From an uncultured Methanosarcinales archaeon (GTDB taxonomy: Archaea > Nanobdellota > Nanobdellia > Woesearchaeales > ARS49): a stretch of 64,000 nt of DNA. The translations under genes were made by a program, and so were the position numbers. The DNA lies in NCBI GenBank assembly GCA_964354285.1, contig CAYGYR010000001.1, forward strand, positions 262,424 to 326,423, in the 5' to 3' direction. Of the stretch, positions 32,725 through 42,762 are shown piece after piece (the first letter of the stretch is position 1; the number at the start of each line of letters is the position of its first letter). Under the pieces are notes generated by a model, which searched no databases, was not told the DNA's origin, and saw only the letters and a list, made by a program, of their open reading frames with translations.

Positions 32725-33528
32725 TTACTTCACATGCTTCATTGATTTCCAGTTTGCCTCAAACAGGTTCTCAAGGGCTTGCGCAAAGTATGGCGTGTTC
32801 ACCCAGATTCCAACATCATATGTCGGATGGACTTCCTTGTCGTCCATAATCATGAACACCAGCTCTTTGCCATCAACAATGCAGAACCTTGCTTTTGAAT
32901 CAGTGTGCCTTACCTCTGCGTAGGGTAAAACCTCACTAAAGGCCTGCTTTGTTTCTTTGGTAAGAGGCGCTGCAATTCTTATCCTCACGCCTTTCTTCTT
33001 TAATTTTTCAAAGACTGGCTTCAATCCCTCAACTTTTCTCATGAAACCCTGCGGCGTTGTCATTATCGTAACTGATTTTTGCGCGTTTTTGATTGCAAGC
33101 TCGAGATGGTTGTAGAGGTTATGCCTTCCTTTCAGGCTGCCGCTGAGCTCTGAAGGCTCAACAAGCTCTATCCCCTGCGTGTGCAGTGAATTTAGCTCCG
33201 TAATAACATCTGTGCTCTTAAGGTCTTCAAGCCTCTTTACCCGTTCTGTTGCCTCTTCTCGTAAATTTTTCTTAACTCGCTCAAGGACTTCCTGGGGAGC
33301 GACAGCAATGTATTTTATTGGCTTTCCAAGCTTCATAATAACATATCCTTTTTTTTCAAGGCTCTCAAGAACATCATAACTCCTGCTCCTTGGAACATTA
33401 GCAATATCAGAAAGCTCTCCTGCAGTGGCAACACCCCTTGAAAGAAGCGCAGCCCATACCTTTACTTCATACAAGTTCAGAGAAAAAATGCGCCTTAATT
33501 TGCTTAAAAATTCTTCTTTTACAATCAT
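32725..33528 (-). CDS. trmB: TrmB-family transcriptional regulator.
   Basis: The N-terminal wHTH reads LSRGVATAGELSDIANVPRSRSYDVLESLEKKGYVIMKLGKPIKYIAV. A C-terminal sugar-binding-like domain is present. It is paralogous to 53891..54682. Confidence 0.8.
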   Translation of the reverse strand: MIVKEEFLSKLRRIFSLNLYEVKVWAALLSRGVATAGELSDIANVPRSRSYDVLESLEKKGYVIMKLGKPIKYIAVAPQEVLERVKKNLREEATERVKRLEDLKSTDVITELNSLHTQGIELVEPSELSGSLKGRHNLYNHLELAIKNAQKSVTIMTTPQGFMRKVEGLKPVFEKLKKKGVRIRIAAPLTKETKQAFSEVLPYAEVRHTDSKARFCIVDGKELVFMIMDDKEVHPTYDVGIWVNTPYFAQALENLFEANWKSMKHVK

Positions 33529-33741
33529 GTATGCCTCCCCCCTTTTTTTGTTATTTGCCTGAGGTAAAACTTAACCACTATTTATATGTTACGGTTTGGA
33601 TGCACTACAAAGAGGGAACATAATAGTGGCCAAGACCGTCGCTATTTCATAGTGGAGAAAGTGCAAGCAGATATATAAACATTTATGTTATTGAGAATAG
33701 ATTTTGAAATGCAGCTGAACCAAAGTAGCAGTATTACAATA

Positions 33742-34791
33742 TTAGTAATGCAGTTTGAACCTGAGAACTGCGCCAAGACCGCTGAGGCCATCAAGCTTCT
33801 TTCCGCCAGCATGCTCTGATGAGACAATTGTTATTTTGGCTTTTATGCCATCTGACAACCGCATCAAGGCCTCAAGCCTTGAGAACGTTCCCTCCTCCCG
33901 CGTCTTTGCAATCAGGGAATCTGTCACAAGCAAATCACGTATTGCGCCCATTGTGGCTGCCTGCTCAACCTCATCAAATCCGTAAGCAGCAAGACCTTGC
34001 TTAGAGATTTCTGATAGAAGCTCCTCAACAAGAGCGATTTCCTTGCTTACCCTCTCCTCCTGCAGAGCCTGCTGAACTTCTGTTCTTTTTAGAACCTCGT
34101 CAACTGCAGACTGGTCAGCAGAAGAGCACGTTGCCGAGAGTATTTTCTTTTTCAATCCATCATTTTTCAAGACCTTGAAAAGCTCTTCCTTCCAAAAAGA
34201 AGGGCTGGCGAGGATTATCTTGTCAAGCTCGTATCTTTTGTCATACTCCTCAAGCATGTGAATTATTTCTGAATAAAAATCGCCTTTGACTGCGCCCTCA
34301 ACCCCTTTCTTTGCAACAGACCCTTTTATCTGGCTGAGAACCTCATACCCTGCCCGCTTCATCATTGCAAAAAATGCATCTTCCCTGTCAAAAACACAGA
34401 TTAAAATCTTCGGCATCTTTGCCTGGCATGCCTCTTTAAGGCGGTCCATCTGGTAGCCGAGCCACCTCTCCTTGGTTATGGAGATTATGGTGCCTTCCTC
34501 AACATTGAAAGTGTGATAGCTTCCTCGCGGGACATCCTCTGGCCCCTCTATGATTTTTCCTGACAGCCTAAGAACATTTGCTGAAAACTCTATTTTTTCA
34601 ACCTGAAGAGCAAGAAAGACGGGCTTTCTTATCGCTTCCCGTTCCTCTCCTCCAACCTTGATTTTTCTAAGGGTCTTTCCTTTAACAAAATCATCTTCAT
34701 CAATTATCTGGCTGAGATACCAAAGGTCATCTGAGTTCTCAACCTTTACCTTGACCTCTCCTTGCTTGAAATTAGTGCCTATGATTTTCAT
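33742..34791 (-). CDS. pelA: Pelota/Dom34 mRNA surveillance protein, aRF1-like.
   Basis: It has the MKIIGTNFKQGEVKVKVENSDDLWYL N-domain and eRF1-like central and C-terminal domains. I chose the start at the internal Met. Confidence 0.8.
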   Translation of the reverse strand: MKIIGTNFKQGEVKVKVENSDDLWYLSQIIDEDDFVKGKTLRKIKVGGEEREAIRKPVFLALQVEKIEFSANVLRLSGKIIEGPEDVPRGSYHTFNVEEGTIISITKERWLGYQMDRLKEACQAKMPKILICVFDREDAFFAMMKRAGYEVLSQIKGSVAKKGVEGAVKGDFYSEIIHMLEEYDKRYELDKIILASPSFWKEELFKVLKNDGLKKKILSATCSSADQSAVDEVLKRTEVQQALQEERVSKEIALVEELLSEISKQGLAAYGFDEVEQAATMGAIRDLLVTDSLIAKTREEGTFSRLEALMRLSDGIKAKITIVSSEHAGGKKLDGLSGLGAVLRFKLHY

Positions 34792-34955
34792 AACAAAATC
34801 AAAGGCCCTTTGACTTTTAAATCTTTGCCTGATACAAAGCCAAGAATAACAAACCCCAAGCACACTGCAACCAGCAAAACATTTATATATACTTTACTGG
34901 TAATAAACAATATAAAAACTCATAAGTAAGTAATACTGAAAAAAAAGGTGATTGC

Positions 34956-36122
34956 ATGATAACAAACAAGAGAGGCCAAGAGGCACCGGGCGGAGGTAGT
35001 GCAGCCACACTCGTTGGCATCATAACACTGCTTTTCGTTTTCTACATTCTGTTCCTGCCATCTGCAGAACGCGAAGAACTGCTGGCAGATGAAAAAGCAC
35101 CTGGAGTTATAGAGGCAGAAACGCCACTTCTGCAAGCTGCAATCGGTTGGCTTGAGACAGTTCCGCAAAACGAGATAGAGCACACTGTTCCTAATATTTA
35201 TCTGCAAGAGCTTAAATCAGCGCAAGTCATCTCCATGATGAGCCCTTTCACAATTAAAAAAACACTCACTAGCTCTGAAACAAAGAACTTTACATTTGGA
35301 ATTTCTGACCCTGCAAGCACAGAAAGCGTGATGCTGAGCTTTGCAGCACCCAAAAGGCAGGGAACACTCAAAGTAATATTCAATGGCTATAATGTATTTG
35401 AGGGCGAGATAACACAACTAAATCCTGCGCCAATTTCCATAGACAAGAACTACTTGCAGCAAATAAACACTGTTTTATTTGAGGTAAAGGGATTTGGCCT
35501 GCCACAAAAAGAATACAGCTTCACAGATGTTAAAGTAATCGGCGATGTTGTTGATGTAATGCGCATGACTGCCACAGAAACAATCCCGATATCAGACACA
35601 GAATACAATAATCTCGAAAGAGCAACACTAACATACTATACTGCATGCGACCAGCTTTCAGCAGGGCTGCTTGAGATAAGCTTCAACAGCAAACCTGTAT
35701 TTTCAGGAATGCCCTCCTGCGACAGCCCTAGCAAGCTTGACCTGTTCCAGGATGACATAAAGCCAGGCAAGAACGTGATTACATTCAAGACATCAAAAGG
35801 CAGCATTGGCATAGAGCAGCTAAAACTTGACACAACACTAAAGCCAACAAAAGGATACAGCAATTTCTTCACAGTATCGCAGTCGCTTTATGCTGCTGTG
35901 AAAAAAGGCGATGCAAGAGTTGTGCTAAATATCGAATTTGTTGACGCAGTTAATGACAAAAGAGTGCAGACAAACCTCAACGGAAGGCTTGACATCATTG
36001 ACCAGAAAGAGGCAAAATTTGAGCGCGATATCAGCAAGGTGATTGTGAACGGCAACAACTATATTGAGCTGACTCCTTTGACAAATGTAAACATCGCAAA
36101 GCTCGAGATAATGCCTGAGTAA
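34956..36122 (+). CDS. N-terminally TM-anchored extracellular protein of 388 aa, function unknown. It is the first gene of a plus-strand surface cluster.
   Basis: It has a TM helix LVGIITLLFVFYILFLP followed by a large soluble domain. Confidence 0.5.
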   Translation: MITNKRGQEAPGGGSAATLVGIITLLFVFYILFLPSAEREELLADEKAPGVIEAETPLLQAAIGWLETVPQNEIEHTVPNIYLQELKSAQVISMMSPFTIKKTLTSSETKNFTFGISDPASTESVMLSFAAPKRQGTLKVIFNGYNVFEGEITQLNPAPISIDKNYLQQINTVLFEVKGFGLPQKEYSFTDVKVIGDVVDVMRMTATETIPISDTEYNNLERATLTYYTACDQLSAGLLEISFNSKPVFSGMPSCDSPSKLDLFQDDIKPGKNVITFKTSKGSIGIEQLKLDTTLKPTKGYSNFFTVSQSLYAAVKKGDARVVLNIEFVDAVNDKRVQTNLNGRLDIIDQKEAKFERDISKVIVNGNNYIELTPLTNVNIAKLEIMPE

Positions 36123-36130
36123 TTCTTAAA

Positions 36131-37651
36131 ATGGCAGGACCCACAACATCCGGCGACAAACCATCAAAATTAAGCATGTTCGGTCTACTTTTCTTTGCCG
36201 CAGCTGTACATACAATGGATGCGTTCATGCGTCTGCCTGGCGGAAAAGTCAACTTCTATGTTTGGACTATGTTCTTTATACTGTATGCAATCCTTGCAAC
36301 AATGGGAACGAGCAGGCTGGGAACATGGAAGGGGCCGGCGATCGCATCAGGCCTCGCTGCTTTTGTGATACCATTTATATACGTGTACATTGCAAGAAGC
36401 TCTATTGTTATTGGAATGCTCATGCTATTAATGCCCACGTGGATAATTTACCTCCTAATTTTTCACGGAGAGTATTACCCCTGGACAAGCTGGCTCTACA
36501 TGATGTTCTGGATAATCTTCCTTGCATTCTCTTACATGCCCCAAATCCAAAACTATGCCTCAACACAAGGATATGAGCTTCCAACAATATCCCCAGGAAT
36601 AGTTGTGAGGTACACTGGAACAGCATTGATGCAAGGCTTCCAGAATGCAAAACAATCAGTACAATCCATGTACAGCACAGTGGGCAGAGAAATTAAGGTG
36701 TCAATTAAGGCTGCAAAAGGTGATTATTACACAGGCAGTGTAGACCAGAGCGCTGAAAAAATCACAGGAGTTTACGTTGACGGGCTAAAGCCTGTGCAGC
36801 AGGAATTTTTTGAGGGAAGGCCTGCGACAATACGCGGCCAAATACGCGCAGCAACTGTTGCACAGCCAATAAACATCCACTTAACATGCATTGCAGAGCC
36901 TGGAAACATTGCTGCAAAAAGCATAGAGCCTGAAAAAGATATCACTGTTGTAGGAAGCATAACAAAACCAATTTCCTGTGTTTTTGAGGGGCTGACTGCA
37001 AAATACTACACAACAAAACTCACTGTTGACTTTAATTTCGCAACAAGGGCATACCAAAGAGTTTATTTCATGAATGAAGAGAGGCTGCAGGAATACCTGA
37101 TTTTAGGAAAAGACCCCCTAGAGGGATACACTGACAAAATGCCGACAACACAATACTCTCCAGGCCCAATAATGATTGGGATGACAGAGAGCTTCCCAAC
37201 ACAGCCTGTTGGAATAACACAGGGAAAAAACGGGCCAATAGTAGGAATAACTGTTGATAATTTCTGGGGCGGGACGCTAAAAGAGGTAAAAGATCTTGTA
37301 ATTTACACGCCAAAAGGCCTTGATATAAAAGATATAAATGGAGTTTATCCACTAAAAATAAGCTGCTCAGACTTGCGCACAGAAGAAAGCGTCGGGTGCG
37401 ATGACAATCTTGAAAGCATATACAGGATGCCTCCTGCAGAGATGCAGATGCTAAGCCAAACAACAGTCAAAACATATGAAGCACATACTTTCGTGAGCGA
37501 CAGTGCTAAATTAATCAGCGACCCAAAAACAATCAAAGTCACAGTGGATTATGACTACAAATACACGCAGGAGCTTGGAATCAGCGTCAAATCCCGCCCA
37601 ACAACAACATCCCCTGCGACACTGCCATCCATACTAACAATAACATCATAA
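36131..37651 (+). CDS. Polytopic membrane protein with about 4 TM helices, fused to an extracellular domain paralogous to the three downstream lipoproteins.
   Basis: There are four hydrophobic helices in the first 130 aa. The C-terminal KVTVDYDYKY motif is shared with 37653, 38621 and 39589. Confidence 0.55.
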   Translation: MAGPTTSGDKPSKLSMFGLLFFAAAVHTMDAFMRLPGGKVNFYVWTMFFILYAILATMGTSRLGTWKGPAIASGLAAFVIPFIYVYIARSSIVIGMLMLLMPTWIIYLLIFHGEYYPWTSWLYMMFWIIFLAFSYMPQIQNYASTQGYELPTISPGIVVRYTGTALMQGFQNAKQSVQSMYSTVGREIKVSIKAAKGDYYTGSVDQSAEKITGVYVDGLKPVQQEFFEGRPATIRGQIRAATVAQPINIHLTCIAEPGNIAAKSIEPEKDITVVGSITKPISCVFEGLTAKYYTTKLTVDFNFATRAYQRVYFMNEERLQEYLILGKDPLEGYTDKMPTTQYSPGPIMIGMTESFPTQPVGITQGKNGPIVGITVDNFWGGTLKEVKDLVIYTPKGLDIKDINGVYPLKISCSDLRTEESVGCDDNLESIYRMPPAEMQMLSQTTVKTYEAHTFVSDSAKLISDPKTIKVTVDYDYKYTQELGISVKSRPTTTSPATLPSILTITS

Positions 37652-37652
37652 C

Positions 37653-38582
37653 ATGAAAAAAACAATTGCACTCCTATTAATCATTGTCACCATAACCGGC
37701 TGCCAGTTCATGCCTGTTAAGAAAGAACAGATAGCAGTGCCTGACATCCACACTGGCGTAAATGGCGTGACTCTTGAATTCCTTGAAAACGCGCCGCCTG
37801 CAGAGATTTACGAAGAACGCCCATTTGATATCATAGTCAAGGTTCACAATCAAGGCGCAAATGATGTTCGCGGCGGAATGTTACTAATTGGCGTTGAGGA
37901 ACAAAATGTTGAGCTCACAGGACAAAAAGACCTGAGATTTGACCTTGCAGGAAAATCAGCATACAACTCAGAAGGTGTCTTTGACATGAAACAGTTCAGG
38001 GCAACTGCAAGAAAACTAAGCCCTGCGGCAGGAAAAATATATCCGACAACAGTAACAGCAACCGCGTGCTATGCATACAAAACAGCAGCAACCGCGCTTG
38101 TGTGCATTGACACAGACCTTCTTGGAATTGTAAAAAACAAGCCATGCAAGACAAGCACACAAAGCCATGGCTCTGGACAGGGCGCACCTGTTGCAGTAAC
38201 ATCTGTTGTGCCAAAAATGCTGCCTCATGCAGACCCTGACATGATAACCCCTGAATTCACGATAAGCATAGCAAACCGCGGAGTGGGAGATGTTGTTGCA
38301 GGAGAAAAAGTATATGAAGCATGCAGTGGCAAAAAATTAGGGCAGGATAGCTGGAATGCAGTAAAAATCAGCGCATCACTCTCTGACCAATACCTTGAAT
38401 GCAAGCCATCTGTATTAAAGATAGTGACAGGAGAAAACAAAGCGGTGTGCACAATAACAGGCGGCATCAGCAAGGAACTTGGAACTTATCTTGCACCATT
38501 ATCGATTGAGCTGGACTATGGCTACATGAGCAGAAAAGTAAAATCCATGTCTATCACAAGATTGCTAGGCAGCAGTTATTAG
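37653..38582 (+). CDS. Putative lipoprotein of 309 aa, paralog 1 of the surface-domain family.
   Basis: MKKTIALLLIIVTITGC is a lipobox-like Cys after the signal peptide. Shared motifs are ACYAYKTAATALVCID and LDYGY. Confidence 0.6.
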   Translation: MKKTIALLLIIVTITGCQFMPVKKEQIAVPDIHTGVNGVTLEFLENAPPAEIYEERPFDIIVKVHNQGANDVRGGMLLIGVEEQNVELTGQKDLRFDLAGKSAYNSEGVFDMKQFRATARKLSPAAGKIYPTTVTATACYAYKTAATALVCIDTDLLGIVKNKPCKTSTQSHGSGQGAPVAVTSVVPKMLPHADPDMITPEFTISIANRGVGDVVAGEKVYEACSGKKLGQDSWNAVKISASLSDQYLECKPSVLKIVTGENKAVCTITGGISKELGTYLAPLSIELDYGYMSRKVKSMSITRLLGSSY

Positions 38583-38620
38583 TAAATAACAAAAAAATAT
38601 TTAAAAACGAGAACCAAAGC

Positions 38621-39571
38621 TTGAATAAAATGAGAAAAAACCTGTTCGCAATGATTACCTTGCTATTACTGCTGTCTGCATGCACAGGCACTCTGCCTGG
38701 GCAGCAAAGAAAATCGCAACAATTATACGGGCCAGAATACAGGACAGGAAGCGAAGGCCTCAGATTAAGCTTTGTCCAAAACCTTCCACCAGCAAGGCTA
38801 TTTGACACAGAACAATTTACTACAATGATACAAGTAGAAAACCTAGGAGCTTTCACTGTTGGCGGGCCAGGAGACAAGGTATACCTTTCTGGATTTGACC
38901 AAACAATAATCACAGGAATATCGCAGTGGGGCGCAGACATCCCAGTAACTGAAGGAAAAAGCCAATTCGTGCCAACGGGAACTGTTGATACTGTTGAATT
39001 CAAAGGAATGATTGCGCCGCTCAGGGCAAAAAATATAGACAAGTACCCTGCAAAACTGCTTGCGACTGCATGCTATGCATACGAAACAGTTGCTACAGCA
39101 AATGTCTGCATTGACCCAAGCCCGTATGCAACAAACATAAGAAAGATATGCACGCCAGCATCAGTATCTCTCAGCAGCCAGGGCGCGCCTGTTGCAGTTA
39201 ATCTTGTTGAGATAGACTCGAGCCCTGGCAGGGCAAGATTCAAGATACATGTTAAAAATGTTGGAGGGGGAGATGTTTTCAGGTATGGCGCAGACTACCT
39301 TATGAAGTGCAGCCCATTCTCCCAGCCGCTTTCATTCAATGACATAGATTATGTGGAGCTTGCAGACGTTTACGTTTCAGGAACATCAATAAAGCCAACA
39401 TGCAAGCCGCTGGATGACAATCACATTAGGCTGACTGGCGGCAGCGGCTCTGCGTTCTGCGAATTCATGACAAGAGGACAGGATGCATACACCACACCAA
39501 TCACAGTAACACTAAGATACGGATACAGAAATATCCTGTTTAAGGACGTCCAAATCGTTTCATCATACTAA
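38621..39571 (+). CDS. Putative lipoprotein of 316 aa, paralog 2.
   Basis: It has ...LLLLSAC TGT. Shared motifs are ACYAYETVATANVCID and LRYGY. Confidence 0.6.
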   Translation: MNKMRKNLFAMITLLLLLSACTGTLPGQQRKSQQLYGPEYRTGSEGLRLSFVQNLPPARLFDTEQFTTMIQVENLGAFTVGGPGDKVYLSGFDQTIITGISQWGADIPVTEGKSQFVPTGTVDTVEFKGMIAPLRAKNIDKYPAKLLATACYAYETVATANVCIDPSPYATNIRKICTPASVSLSSQGAPVAVNLVEIDSSPGRARFKIHVKNVGGGDVFRYGADYLMKCSPFSQPLSFNDIDYVELADVYVSGTSIKPTCKPLDDNHIRLTGGSGSAFCEFMTRGQDAYTTPITVTLRYGYRNILFKDVQIVSSY

Positions 39572-39588
39572 ACTGAGGTGAATATAAA

Positions 39589-40530
39589 ATGAAAAAAAAC
39601 ATTTTGATTGCAGTGCTGATCTCTCTTGCTTTTGTGCTGGGCTGCACCACTGAAGAGGGCGCAGAAACAGCATCGATGACCTCGCCGTTCCTTGGTGGAG
39701 CAGTGGGCGTTGTTTCTGATTTTGTAGACCTCCGGGCAGAGGTCTATGACAACGGAAGAGACCCTTTTGATATTGTGATAAAGCTTGAAAACCAGGGTGA
39801 ATCAAAGATTGCAAAAGAAGACATAAGGGTAAAGCTATCTGGATTTAATCCTGTAGAGTTCGGAAAAACAGAGCAGGACCTGACAAAAAACCCTGACGAC
39901 AGCCTTACTGAAAAAATGAAAGACTCACAAGGAAATGTCATTCCGAGCGCGCCTGTTTTCGTTGAGTTCAAGGGGCTTAATCACGCGGCAAAAATAACAG
40001 GGGCAAGAATTGACCTCCCAATAAGGGCAGATATCTGCTACATGTACACAACAGAAGCAATAAGCAAACTCTGCATCAGAAGAAACATCCTTAACCCCCC
40101 TGCAGGAGGGATATGCGAGATAACAGAAACCAAGCCTGTGTTTAACTCAGGATCCCCCATACAGTTCATGGATTTCAAAGAAATGTCAAGATCAAAAGAC
40201 AAAATAGGGTTCAGCTTTGAAATCAAAAATGTCGGGACAGGTGACTTGTTTGAGATGGGAAGTGTCTGCGACAGAAGCATGAGAGGATATGAGAACAAGG
40301 TCTATGTGAAAGTCTCAACAAACCTTGACGGCCTCAGCTGCACAGGACTCGAGTCAAAAGGCAGGATAGCAGAAGGATTTGTCTTACTGTTTGACAAGAG
40401 CAAGATAATCACCTGCACGCAAGCAGTCTCAACATCAACTGACTTTGAACAGGTAGTCAGCCTCGAAGGAACATATGACTATGAAGAGTTCAAGCAGGCA
40501 CAGATAACAGTCAAAAGCTCTGGAGAATAG
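39589..40530 (+). CDS. Putative lipoprotein of 313 aa, paralog 3.
   Basis: It has MKKNILIAVLISLAFVLGC. Shared motifs are ICYMYTTEAISKLCI and TYDYEEF. Confidence 0.6.
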   Translation: MKKNILIAVLISLAFVLGCTTEEGAETASMTSPFLGGAVGVVSDFVDLRAEVYDNGRDPFDIVIKLENQGESKIAKEDIRVKLSGFNPVEFGKTEQDLTKNPDDSLTEKMKDSQGNVIPSAPVFVEFKGLNHAAKITGARIDLPIRADICYMYTTEAISKLCIRRNILNPPAGGICEITETKPVFNSGSPIQFMDFKEMSRSKDKIGFSFEIKNVGTGDLFEMGSVCDRSMRGYENKVYVKVSTNLDGLSCTGLESKGRIAEGFVLLFDKSKIITCTQAVSTSTDFEQVVSLEGTYDYEEFKQAQITVKSSGE

Positions 40531-40566
40531 AAAGTATTTTTTTATTTCCTTTTTCTTTTTTAATTA
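40531..40566. terminator. Oligo-T tract between convergent genes, a probable archaeal terminator.
   Basis: The sequence is tatttttttatttcctttttctttttt. Confidence 0.4.
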
Positions 40567-40568
40567 AG

Positions 40569-41528
40569 CTAATTATTTACAGCAGTTATATGCGCAATAA
40601 GAGCCTCTAGCTGCAGGAATTCATCAGAACCCTCAACCATCCTGAACTCTATCTCACCGCACTTGTCAATAAGAGCAACCTTTTTCCTTGAATCAACGCC
40701 GAGGCCCCAAATCTCTTTTTGAATCTGCTTTATGACATCAATTCCTGAAAGGCCATAATTAAGCATGACATCAAGAAGTTTTTTCCTGGCAGAAAGAAAA
40801 TCACCTTTAAGCGCGATTTCAAGAAGCTCCTTTATCTCTTTTGGCTGCGCAAAAGATGCAAGAGAGTAAACAAGCTCTACATCAATGTTCTTTGAGACGG
40901 CTGCACAGCTCTGAAGTATGTTCTCAAGACGCCTGCAGTCTCCCTCTGAGACAACAAAGAGAGCGTCTTTTGCCTCAGGACTTATCTTGATCTTCTCTTC
41001 TTTTGCAATAGAATCAACCATGTCAAAAATGTCCTGCTTTTCAAGAGGCCTGAACTTGAATACAGCACATCTTGACTGTATAGGATCAAGTATCTTTGAA
41101 CTGTAGTTTGCTGCAAGAATAAACCTGCATGTGCTCGTATAATTTTCCATGGTCCTCCTTAATGCCTGCTGCGCCTCTTTTGTTAGCGCATCACACTCAT
41201 CAAGAAAAATTATCTTGAAAGGAACATCGCCCATTGCCTTTGTTCTGGCAAAATCCTTGACTTTTATCCTGACAACATCAATACCGCGCTCATCACTTGC
41301 ATTAAGCTCAAGAAAATTCTGCCTCCAGCTCTCACCAAACAGCTGCCTGGCAATCACCAGCGCAAGAGTGCTCTTTCCAACACCTGCAGGGCCTGCAAAC
41401 AAAAGGTGAGGCAGGTTTTTCTGGGCAACAAAAGCCTGCACCTTAGAAATTATCTCCTTCTGGCCCTTGACCTGCGCAAAAACAGTTGGCCTGTACTTCT
41501 CTGTCCAGATTGAACTTTCACCTAACAT
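40569..41528 (-). CDS. rfcS: Replication factor C small subunit.
   Basis: It has Walker A GPAGVGKST, the DEAD-like FLDECD, the SRC motif and the KYRPTVFAQVKGQ N-terminus. Confidence 0.9.
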   Translation of the reverse strand: MLGESSIWTEKYRPTVFAQVKGQKEIISKVQAFVAQKNLPHLLFAGPAGVGKSTLALVIARQLFGESWRQNFLELNASDERGIDVVRIKVKDFARTKAMGDVPFKIIFLDECDALTKEAQQALRRTMENYTSTCRFILAANYSSKILDPIQSRCAVFKFRPLEKQDIFDMVDSIAKEEKIKISPEAKDALFVVSEGDCRRLENILQSCAAVSKNIDVELVYSLASFAQPKEIKELLEIALKGDFLSARKKLLDVMLNYGLSGIDVIKQIQKEIWGLGVDSRKKVALIDKCGEIEFRMVEGSDEFLQLEALIAHITAVNN

Positions 41529-41575
41529 ACTTCCCCCTACTACTTTGAAAGACCTACACTATAAATAATTTTGGT

Positions 41576-41839
41576 TTAGACTATGTCTTCTTCAGAAATA
41601 ACCATGAAGTCGCCCATAGCAATTACTGCAGAGAACGGAACAAGCAAGTTGCCTTCCTTGTCTTTCTCCAGCTCAAGCTTTTCTGTGTATACAGTAGGGT
41701 TCTTGAGCACAAGATGTATGAGCTCCCCTGATTTCGCTTCAAATATTATGTCTCCCACTTCACCAAAACGCTTTCCTAGCTTGCTGACTACTGTCTTTCC
41801 GATCAGCTTTTTCGAGAATGTTTTTGGGTTTTCAGCCAT
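41576..41839 (-). CDS. PRC-barrel domain protein.
   Basis: The 87-aa protein reads LIGKTVVSKLGKRFGEVGDIIFEAKSGELIHLVL, typical of archaeal PRC-barrel proteins. Confidence 0.6.
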   Translation of the reverse strand: MAENPKTFSKKLIGKTVVSKLGKRFGEVGDIIFEAKSGELIHLVLKNPTVYTEKLELEKDKEGNLLVPFSAVIAMGDFMVISEEDIV

Positions 41840-41919
41840 TGTTTTTTCACCTTAATAATTATACAAAACAAGTAGGTCAAGTCATATTTAAATCTTTCGT
41901 TAAAATGGTATTAGCGCAT

Positions 41920-42762
41920 CTAAGCCTTTGCTTGCGGTATCTTCTGGGCAAGCTCTGGGTTATGACAAACCTCCTTCAAGCTGCAGCTCTTGCACTTATT
42001 CTCATTCTTATTTAAAGGAGGAAGCTTCTCTGACGAAAGCATGGCCCTAACCTCTTTAACAAGCTCCTTTACCTGATCTTTTAAAAAAGGATTAATCTCA
42101 ATGCTTCTTGCCTGGTTATCATCCAGGTATCTTATTATTCCGCTATTTATTGGAACCTTAAAACTATCCTCCAGCAGCAAGGCATATGCTGCAAGCTGAA
42201 TCTTGTGGTCTTCCCAAGCTCCTTCTTTTGGAGCTTTTCCTGTCTTTAGCTCAACTGGAAGAAGCATTGTTGGAAAAACCTGGACCTGGTCTATCTTGCC
42301 AGTAAGGTAAAGATTCTGCGAAGCAATTTTGTATTCTGACTTGAGCTTTGGCGTAAGCGCCTCCCACAAATCTTCACCATAAACCTTGTTTTTCTGTATA
42401 AAAGAGAAAAGATTTGCTGCGCGCACCTCTGCCTCAAGCCTGAAAAGCACAATATACTGCTTGAATGCATCCATTGGAAGAAGACTGACGAGTTTCAGCT
42501 GGTTCTTGCTCTGAATAATAACCATCCTGAGAATCTGGGCATATCTCTTGTTGTACATGTCAAGAATCTGCTCGTAAGCTGAGCTGCTGTCAATAGAGCA
42601 GATTATGCCTTTCTCTGTCTTCTCCATCTCCTCAAAGACACGGTGCTTTATTGCGCCCCTGACAAGAAACTCCTTTGGAATCTCTTCATAACCAAGAACT
42701 TTCTGAAGATAGAGCTTTCTTGCACAATAAAGATAGGCAGTTAATGATGTGACTGAAAGCAT
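41920..42762 (-). CDS. Cas4/RecB-like PD-(D/E)xK nuclease with a 4-Cys Fe-S cluster. It has no CRISPR context.
   Basis: The first cluster ligand is in the N-terminal YCARKLYL. A conserved ELKTGK motif is present. The C-terminal CKSCSLKEVC supplies the remaining Cys. Confidence 0.65.
   Translation of the reverse strand: MLSVTSLTAYLYCARKLYLQKVLGYEEIPKEFLVRGAIKHRVFEEMEKTEKGIICSIDSSSAYEQILDMYNKRYAQILRMVIIQSKNQLKLVSLLPMDAFKQYIVLFRLEAEVRAANLFSFIQKNKVYGEDLWEALTPKLKSEYKIASQNLYLTGKIDQVQVFPTMLLPVELKTGKAPKEGAWEDHKIQLAAYALLLEDSFKVPINSGIIRYLDDNQARSIEINPFLKDQVKELVKEVRAMLSSEKLPPLNKNENKCKSCSLKEVCHNPELAQKIPQAKA

Follow-up and report, generated by a model that had tools for sequence, protein, structure and literature searches.

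A syntenic five-gene operon of Woesearchaeota encoding predicted subunits of a membrane-tethered cell-surface complex

The five-gene locus and its flanking signals

The window (the whole 64-kb stretch of DNA that was analysed) contains a set of five open reading frames on the forward strand, here called g1 to g5. A bitopic protein of 388 aa is encoded by g1 (34956..36122) and a polytopic membrane protein of 506 aa by g2 (36131..37651); g3 (37653..38582, 309 aa), g4 (38630..39571, 313 aa) and g5 (39589..40530, 313 aa) encode three paralogous predicted lipoproteins. The g3 start codon lies 1 nt past the g2 stop. The length of g4 depends on the start that is chosen: the TTG at 38621 gives 316 aa, and the ATG at 38630, used in public gene calls, gives 313 aa.

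As read from the sequence, g1 is preceded on the forward strand by a putative promoter and ribosome-binding region for the operon (34882..34951), comprising a TTTATATA box at 34882-34889, a second A/T box at ~34909-34918 and a putative ribosome-binding GGTGA at 34947-34951, five bases upstream of the g1 ATG. This region lies within the divergent intergenic space common to Pelota and g1. Beyond g5 lies a T-rich tract (40537..40561, assigned to neither strand) that is likely an archaeal oligo-T terminator; it lies between g5 and the convergently oriented gene for the RFC small subunit. An Rfam scan of positions 33000-42500 returned no RNA, and a scan with sigma-70 and intrinsic-terminator models, which are unsuited to archaea, returned the same counts as shuffled sequence.

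The initial annotation had placed an anchored 388-aa protein ahead of g2, and this was borne out. In an alignment of 24 orthologs, g1 consists of an N-terminal [KR][GA]Q motif, one transmembrane helix (~16-35), an acidic linker and repeated β modules. The modules at ~107-195 and ~203-292 are homologous (an internal repeat, hhalign E 8.9e-12), with a third look-alike at ~300-388; g1 has no similarity to g2-g5. The [KR][GA]Q motif is present in 34 of 52 orthologs, and a regex count puts it 4-16 residues (median ~9) ahead of the helix core LIGIIT. By eye, the helix almost adjoins the motif in the orthologs from loci L040 and L082, and a polar spacer of ~10 residues intervenes in the window's g1. 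In type IV pilins (class III signal peptide) the [KR]-[GA] site directly abuts the hydrophobic helix, a spacing that varies among g1 orthologs. Clear pilin-like N-termini with K-[AG]-Q occur on other proteins of the window.

Paralogy of the predicted lipoproteins and probable homology of the g2 ectodomain

Three lipoproteins of ~310 aa carrying ITGC, LSAC and VLGC had been proposed at first reading, and the reading frames, the strings and the cysteine positions (17, 21 and 19) were all verified. A lipobox was defined as a positive n-region and a hydrophobic h-region followed by [LVI][ASTVIL][GAS]-Cys within ~35 N-terminal residues. All three proteins begin in this way, with ITGC in g3 (C17, codon 37701-37703), LSAC in g4 (C21 or C18 according to the start, codon 38681-38683) and VLGC in g5 (C19, codon 39643-39645), so that the cysteine stands where a lipobox cysteine should. 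Pfam LPAM_1 matches g3 at 18.7 bits, slightly below its cut-off of 20. Such a motif is kept in ~90% of orthologs (g3 65/72, g4 67/78, g5 70/75); the orthologs that lack it are mostly truncated or mis-started reading frames.

DPANN archaea are reported to have both AliA and lipobox lipoproteins (PMC12462473). Like the lipoproteins of the archaeal AliA/AliB pathway (Hong et al. 2025, PMC12462473), g3-g5 have a positively charged start, a hydrophobic core, [LVI][ASTVIL][GAS]C and a cysteine conserved over orthologs, lipidation here being predicted from sequence. Among archaeal lipoproteins, characterised or predicted, solute-binding and redox proteins predominate, whereas g3-g5 are three double β-sandwich paralogs in one operon.

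The motifs that the three proteins were said to share proved homologous, and not a product of chance. BLASTP gave E 9e-31 for g3/g4, 2e-13 for g4/g5 and 2e-9 for g3/g5, and profile-profile comparison among the three gave E 4e-66, 1e-35 and 4e-28. On these sequence comparisons, with similarity far above chance, g3, g4 and g5 are true paralogs. The mid-protein motif reads ACYAYKTAATALVCI in g3, ACYAYETVATANVCI in g4 and ICYMYTTEAISKLCI in g5, and the C-terminal motif LDYGY, LRYGY and TYDYEEF, respectively.

The AlphaFold model of g4 (pLDDT 90.4) shows two CARDB/macroglobulin-like β-sandwiches, each ending in a strand of ~24 residues, and g3 has two CARDB-like β-sandwich domains with six conserved cysteines. 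The same six are invariant in an alignment of 40 g4 orthologs with the window's g3 and g5. The family displays the seven- to eight-stranded Ig-like β-sandwich of CARDB and MG domains, a fold that is very common and gives no specific functional clue. None of the five proteins gave a match above threshold in Pfam or NCBIfam: Pfam gave no match on g4, LPAM_1 alone, sub-threshold, on g3 and MG4 at E 0.12 on g5. CARDB (PF07705) was matched in 3 of 42 family members, with a best E of 9.7e-4 that falls short of the curated threshold. PDB sequences searched with profiles for g1, for g2 and for the g3-g5 family gave no meaningful match, and a Foldseek search of the g4 model against viral structures (BFVD) gave TM-scores of at most 0.21. 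The likeness is to CARDB, DUF11 and macroglobulin surface β-sandwiches (PF1109 CARDB, PDB 3idu; the α2-macroglobulin lipoproteins YfhM, 4ziu/4u48). Unlike these, g3-g5 combine two domains into a specific unit that has six invariant cysteines and two ~24-residue strands and, unlike macroglobulin proteins, they have neither a thioester nor a bait region.

The initial annotation had assigned the same C-terminal domain to g2, fused there to a 4-helix membrane domain. A polytopic domain fused to an ectodomain is indeed predicted, with 4-5 transmembrane helices rather than clearly four (residues ~13-136), followed by an amphipathic helix. The double β-sandwich ectodomain spans residues ~205-490 (nt 36743-37600) and is followed by a Thr/Ser/Pro-rich tail; VTVDYDYKY is present in the C-terminal region, and the ortholog alignment contains an invariant GDYYTG. 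The claim of a shared domain found no support in pairwise BLASTP against g3-g5 (E 0.15-0.59, not significant), but remote profile similarity was detected, with E 1e-3 to g3 (3e-5 in global mode), 2.5e-3 to g5 and 0.045 to g4, at hhalign probabilities of at most 48%. Despite these weak statistics, collinearity extends over the full length of the alignments (~235 columns). Outside g2 orthologs, 66 of the 75 sub-threshold matches of a g2-ectodomain HMM were g3, g4 or g5 orthologs.

The fold of g2 matches as well. Its AlphaFold model has an ectodomain pLDDT of ~76-93 and a low-confidence transmembrane part, and was built on a shallow alignment: when the g2 alignment was used to search again for homologs, no proteins came up beyond the 13 already known. 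The g2 and g4 models each contain two β-sandwiches, every sandwich is closed by a strand of 21-24 residues, and the order of elements is identical. Compared as secondary-structure agreement at sequence-aligned positions, in place of 3-D superposition, the DSSP assignments of the two models agreed at 70-74% of positions, versus 46±4% in shifted controls. As modelled, the two-β-sandwich ectodomain that g2 shares with g3-g5 is certain at the level of fold and probable at the level of homology; across its whole ectodomain, beyond the C-terminal motif, g2 probably represents a fourth and highly divergent paralog.

Predicted surface location and the SLT extension of g2 orthologs

An extracytoplasmic location of g3-g5, as had been supposed, is predicted to be likely from their signal peptides, the six invariant cysteines of each lipoprotein and the avoidance of N-glycosylation sequons. 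Among orthologs, 14 sequons were observed against 132 expected from shuffles for g3 (ratio 0.11), 2 against ~145 for g4 (0.01) and 6 against 162 for g5 (0.04); the other surface proteins of the window are sequon-enriched. Such near-total avoidance is unusual among archaeal surface proteins and provides a signature that can be searched for elsewhere.

It also bears on the reading of the locus as a purely structural element, an S-layer or an S-layer anchor or spacer unrelated to partner cells. That role is ranked lower because of the sequon avoidance, and is improbable: S-layer proteins in archaea tend to be large, with heavy N-glycosylation, whereas g3-g5 and their orthologs are nearly sequon-free and lack the many N-glycosylation sites typical of archaeal S-layer glycoproteins. 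Moreover, the S-layer candidates of related DPANN measure ~1000 aa and have C-terminal anchors (10.1101/2023.10.27.564410), and separate genes are annotated as S-layer proteins in Woesearchaeota (PMC11606122). The proteins may, though, act as an anchor or spacer underneath an S-layer.

The length of g2 orthologs ranges from 494 to 1224 aa. At ~12 related loci the ortholog, of 900-1224 aa, carries an extra C-terminal SLT/GH23 domain directly past the g2 core. An SLT domain was recognized by catalytic Glu-Ser, G-L-M-Q and A-Y-N-x-G motifs, and was found in orthologs only, where ES, G-x-MQI and AYNGWG are retained. Pfam SLT scored 35.8 bits on the ortholog from locus L082 and 26.1 bits on that from L066, versus a cut-off of 21.3. 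Against the PDB, a profile of ten extension segments found the lytic transglycosylases EtgA, MltC and EmtA as its best matches (E 0.01-0.8); a single-sequence search with the L082 segment found nothing. The window's own g2 has no Pfam SLT match and stops directly past its β-sandwich core, and the 64-kb window contains no SLT-like reading frame, so the peptidoglycan link may have arisen secondarily in one clade and be irrelevant here. EtgA (type III secretion system, PDB 8urn/4xp8), MltC and EmtA, specialised enzymes of envelope-spanning machines, likewise set a cell-wall-cutting module on a multi-protein surface apparatus, but the machines themselves are unrelated, and the wall targeted by an SLT-bearing g2 would be that of another cell and not of the producer.

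The glycan-cleaving domain on some g2 orthologs would also suit an apparatus for glycan or nutrient capture, by analogy with Sus-type lipoproteins that bind glycans at the surface; here g1 would bind polysaccharide and g2 would move the products through the membrane. Tandem β-sandwich proteins with a predicted lipid anchor fit such an arrangement, as do weak recurrent Pfam matches of g1 orthologs to CBM-like, CBM_35 and Sialidase N-terminal domains. However, those matches lie below curated thresholds, no transporter-like family match was found for the g2 membrane domain and the five reading frames of the operon include no ATPase or permease gene, all of which makes capture a distinctly doubtful explanation.

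Conservation, selection and proposed function

A search for the domain in other archaeal genomes recovered the family, with g3, g4 and g5 in this order as separate orthologous groups at 64 of 80 Woesearchaeota loci (minimum margin of group assignment, 43.7 bits). As all three paralogs are matched at these loci by distinct orthologs in an unchanged order, the triplication predates the radiation of the order. All five genes stand in order at 54 of 80 genome loci, 50 of those with every gap below 600 nt, and their usual setting is between Pelota and RFC, both of which flank 36 loci. Four divergent loci have the g4-g5 pair alone at that place; the five genes are therefore not always together. The g2 and g3 genes overlap by 4 nt at 40 of 63 loci and the g1-g2 gap has a median of 3 nt, an arrangement of often translationally coupled genes.

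The conservation of g4 and g5 (median identity to orthologs 51% and 53%) is comparable with that of their housekeeping neighbours Pelota and PheRS (56% at the same loci). A dN/dS taken between paralogs is meaningless because synonymous sites are saturated at their 23-34% identity, and a close strain (~98% identical) was used instead; the resulting values of 0.14-0.18 for g2-g5 indicate that, at the sequence level, these genes are under purifying selection. The 7-9 population variants per protein are scattered conservative changes with no hypervariable patch. The five genes thus appear to form a slowly evolving operon conserved order-wide in Woesearchaeota.

These observations weigh against the diversifying expansion suggested by the initial annotation, taken as one in which g3-g5 would be independent adhesins or antigens, newly triplicated and diversifying in specificity or antigenicity. 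The identity of just 23-34% between tandem paralogs, the likely surface location and the expected need of DPANN archaea for host-recognition proteins (bioRxiv 10.1101/2023.10.27.564410) would suit that view. It is nevertheless largely refuted, and very improbable, given ancient paralogs with 1:1:1 orthologs in fixed order, housekeeping-like conservation, low dN/dS, the lack of a hypervariable region and the lack of further family members elsewhere in the 64-kb window. The Thermococcales Ig-domain module (Makarova et al. 2021, PMC8416519) is likewise an archaeal cluster of Ig-like surface proteins, but it is hypervariable between strains, whereas g1-g5 are among the more conserved loci of their genomes. 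Exchange of cytoplasm with a host through a membrane-fusing or pore-forming device akin to class II fusogens (fusexin/HAP2) can be dismissed almost entirely, as the combination of a three-domain ectodomain with fusion-loop domain II, a C-terminal transmembrane anchor and a trimeric post-fusion form was not found, and the fusexin/HAP2 resemblance was rejected because the Ig-like domain alone superposes.

The preferred reading, at about even confidence, is that g1-g5 constitute one operon whose products would assemble into one stoichiometric complex of putative function, tethered to the membrane at the cell surface. After Sec export, the cysteines of g3-g5 would be lipidated by an AliA-type enzyme, by analogy with other archaea; g3-g5 would be anchored by the lipobox cysteine, g2 by its 4-5-helix bundle and g1 by its single N-terminal helix. 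Each paralog would occupy a set position of its own in a hetero-oligomer around g2, which would account for none being lost or interchangeable, and the bare (sequon-poor), disulfide-stabilised surfaces would pack together near the membrane. Glycan binding may be supplied by g1, in keeping with its weak CBM-type signatures. In some lineages g2 bears an apparently active (predicted) SLT/GH23 domain at its outer end; for this reason the complex would most likely serve contact with, or access to, a partner cell envelope, with bacterial peptidoglycan as the target in SLT-bearing lineages and an enzyme-free version in the organism of this window. Host-recognition proteins are not usually slow-evolving, which counts against a role in partner contact.

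Large murein-like transglycosylase proteins, as well as lineage-specific families of unknown function, have been reported in Woesearchaeota and Pacearchaeota (PMC8204110, PMC9723730), and the operon may be linked to these "large murein transglycosylase" proteins. The SLT-bearing g2 orthologs resemble these large proteins (fam00969 in 'Module 98', Castelle et al. 2021, PMC8204110; Vigneron et al. 2022, PMC9723730) in occurring in the same lineages and in their extracellular, membrane-anchored character; the window's g2 differs in carrying no enzyme domain, and the identity of g2 with fam00969 is presumptive. Synteny indicates that the murein-transglycosylase protein would belong, as a subunit, to a conserved surface module of five genes. 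Neither the five-gene operon nor paralogy with the three lipoproteins was found described in the literature consulted.

A bolder version of the partner-contact proposal is tentative and rather unlikely. In it, the operon would encode an undescribed Woesearchaeota/Pacearchaeota machine, the chassis for the large murein transglycosylase, that attaches to and breaches bacterial host envelopes, with four double β-sandwich paralogs (one polytopic, three lipid-anchored) and a glycan-binding subunit in a fixed hetero-oligomer. Much of archaeal diversity belongs to Woesearchaeota and Pacearchaeota; a literature search found no cultured representative and no demonstration of how such archaea adhere to partner cells or feed on them, the sole recurrent clue to partner interaction being a large extracellular protein with a murein-transglycosylase domain.

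Were the module merely a structural element of the envelope, it would still be a useful lineage marker, of modest interest. If the partner-contact machine is real, it would provide specific candidate genes for how a major DPANN group might exploit bacteria. If the transglycosylase belongs to the module, the latter would become a defined target for metaproteomics, assembly prediction, heterologous expression and cryo-tomography, and g3-g5 would be good test substrates for DPANN lipoprotein biogenesis.

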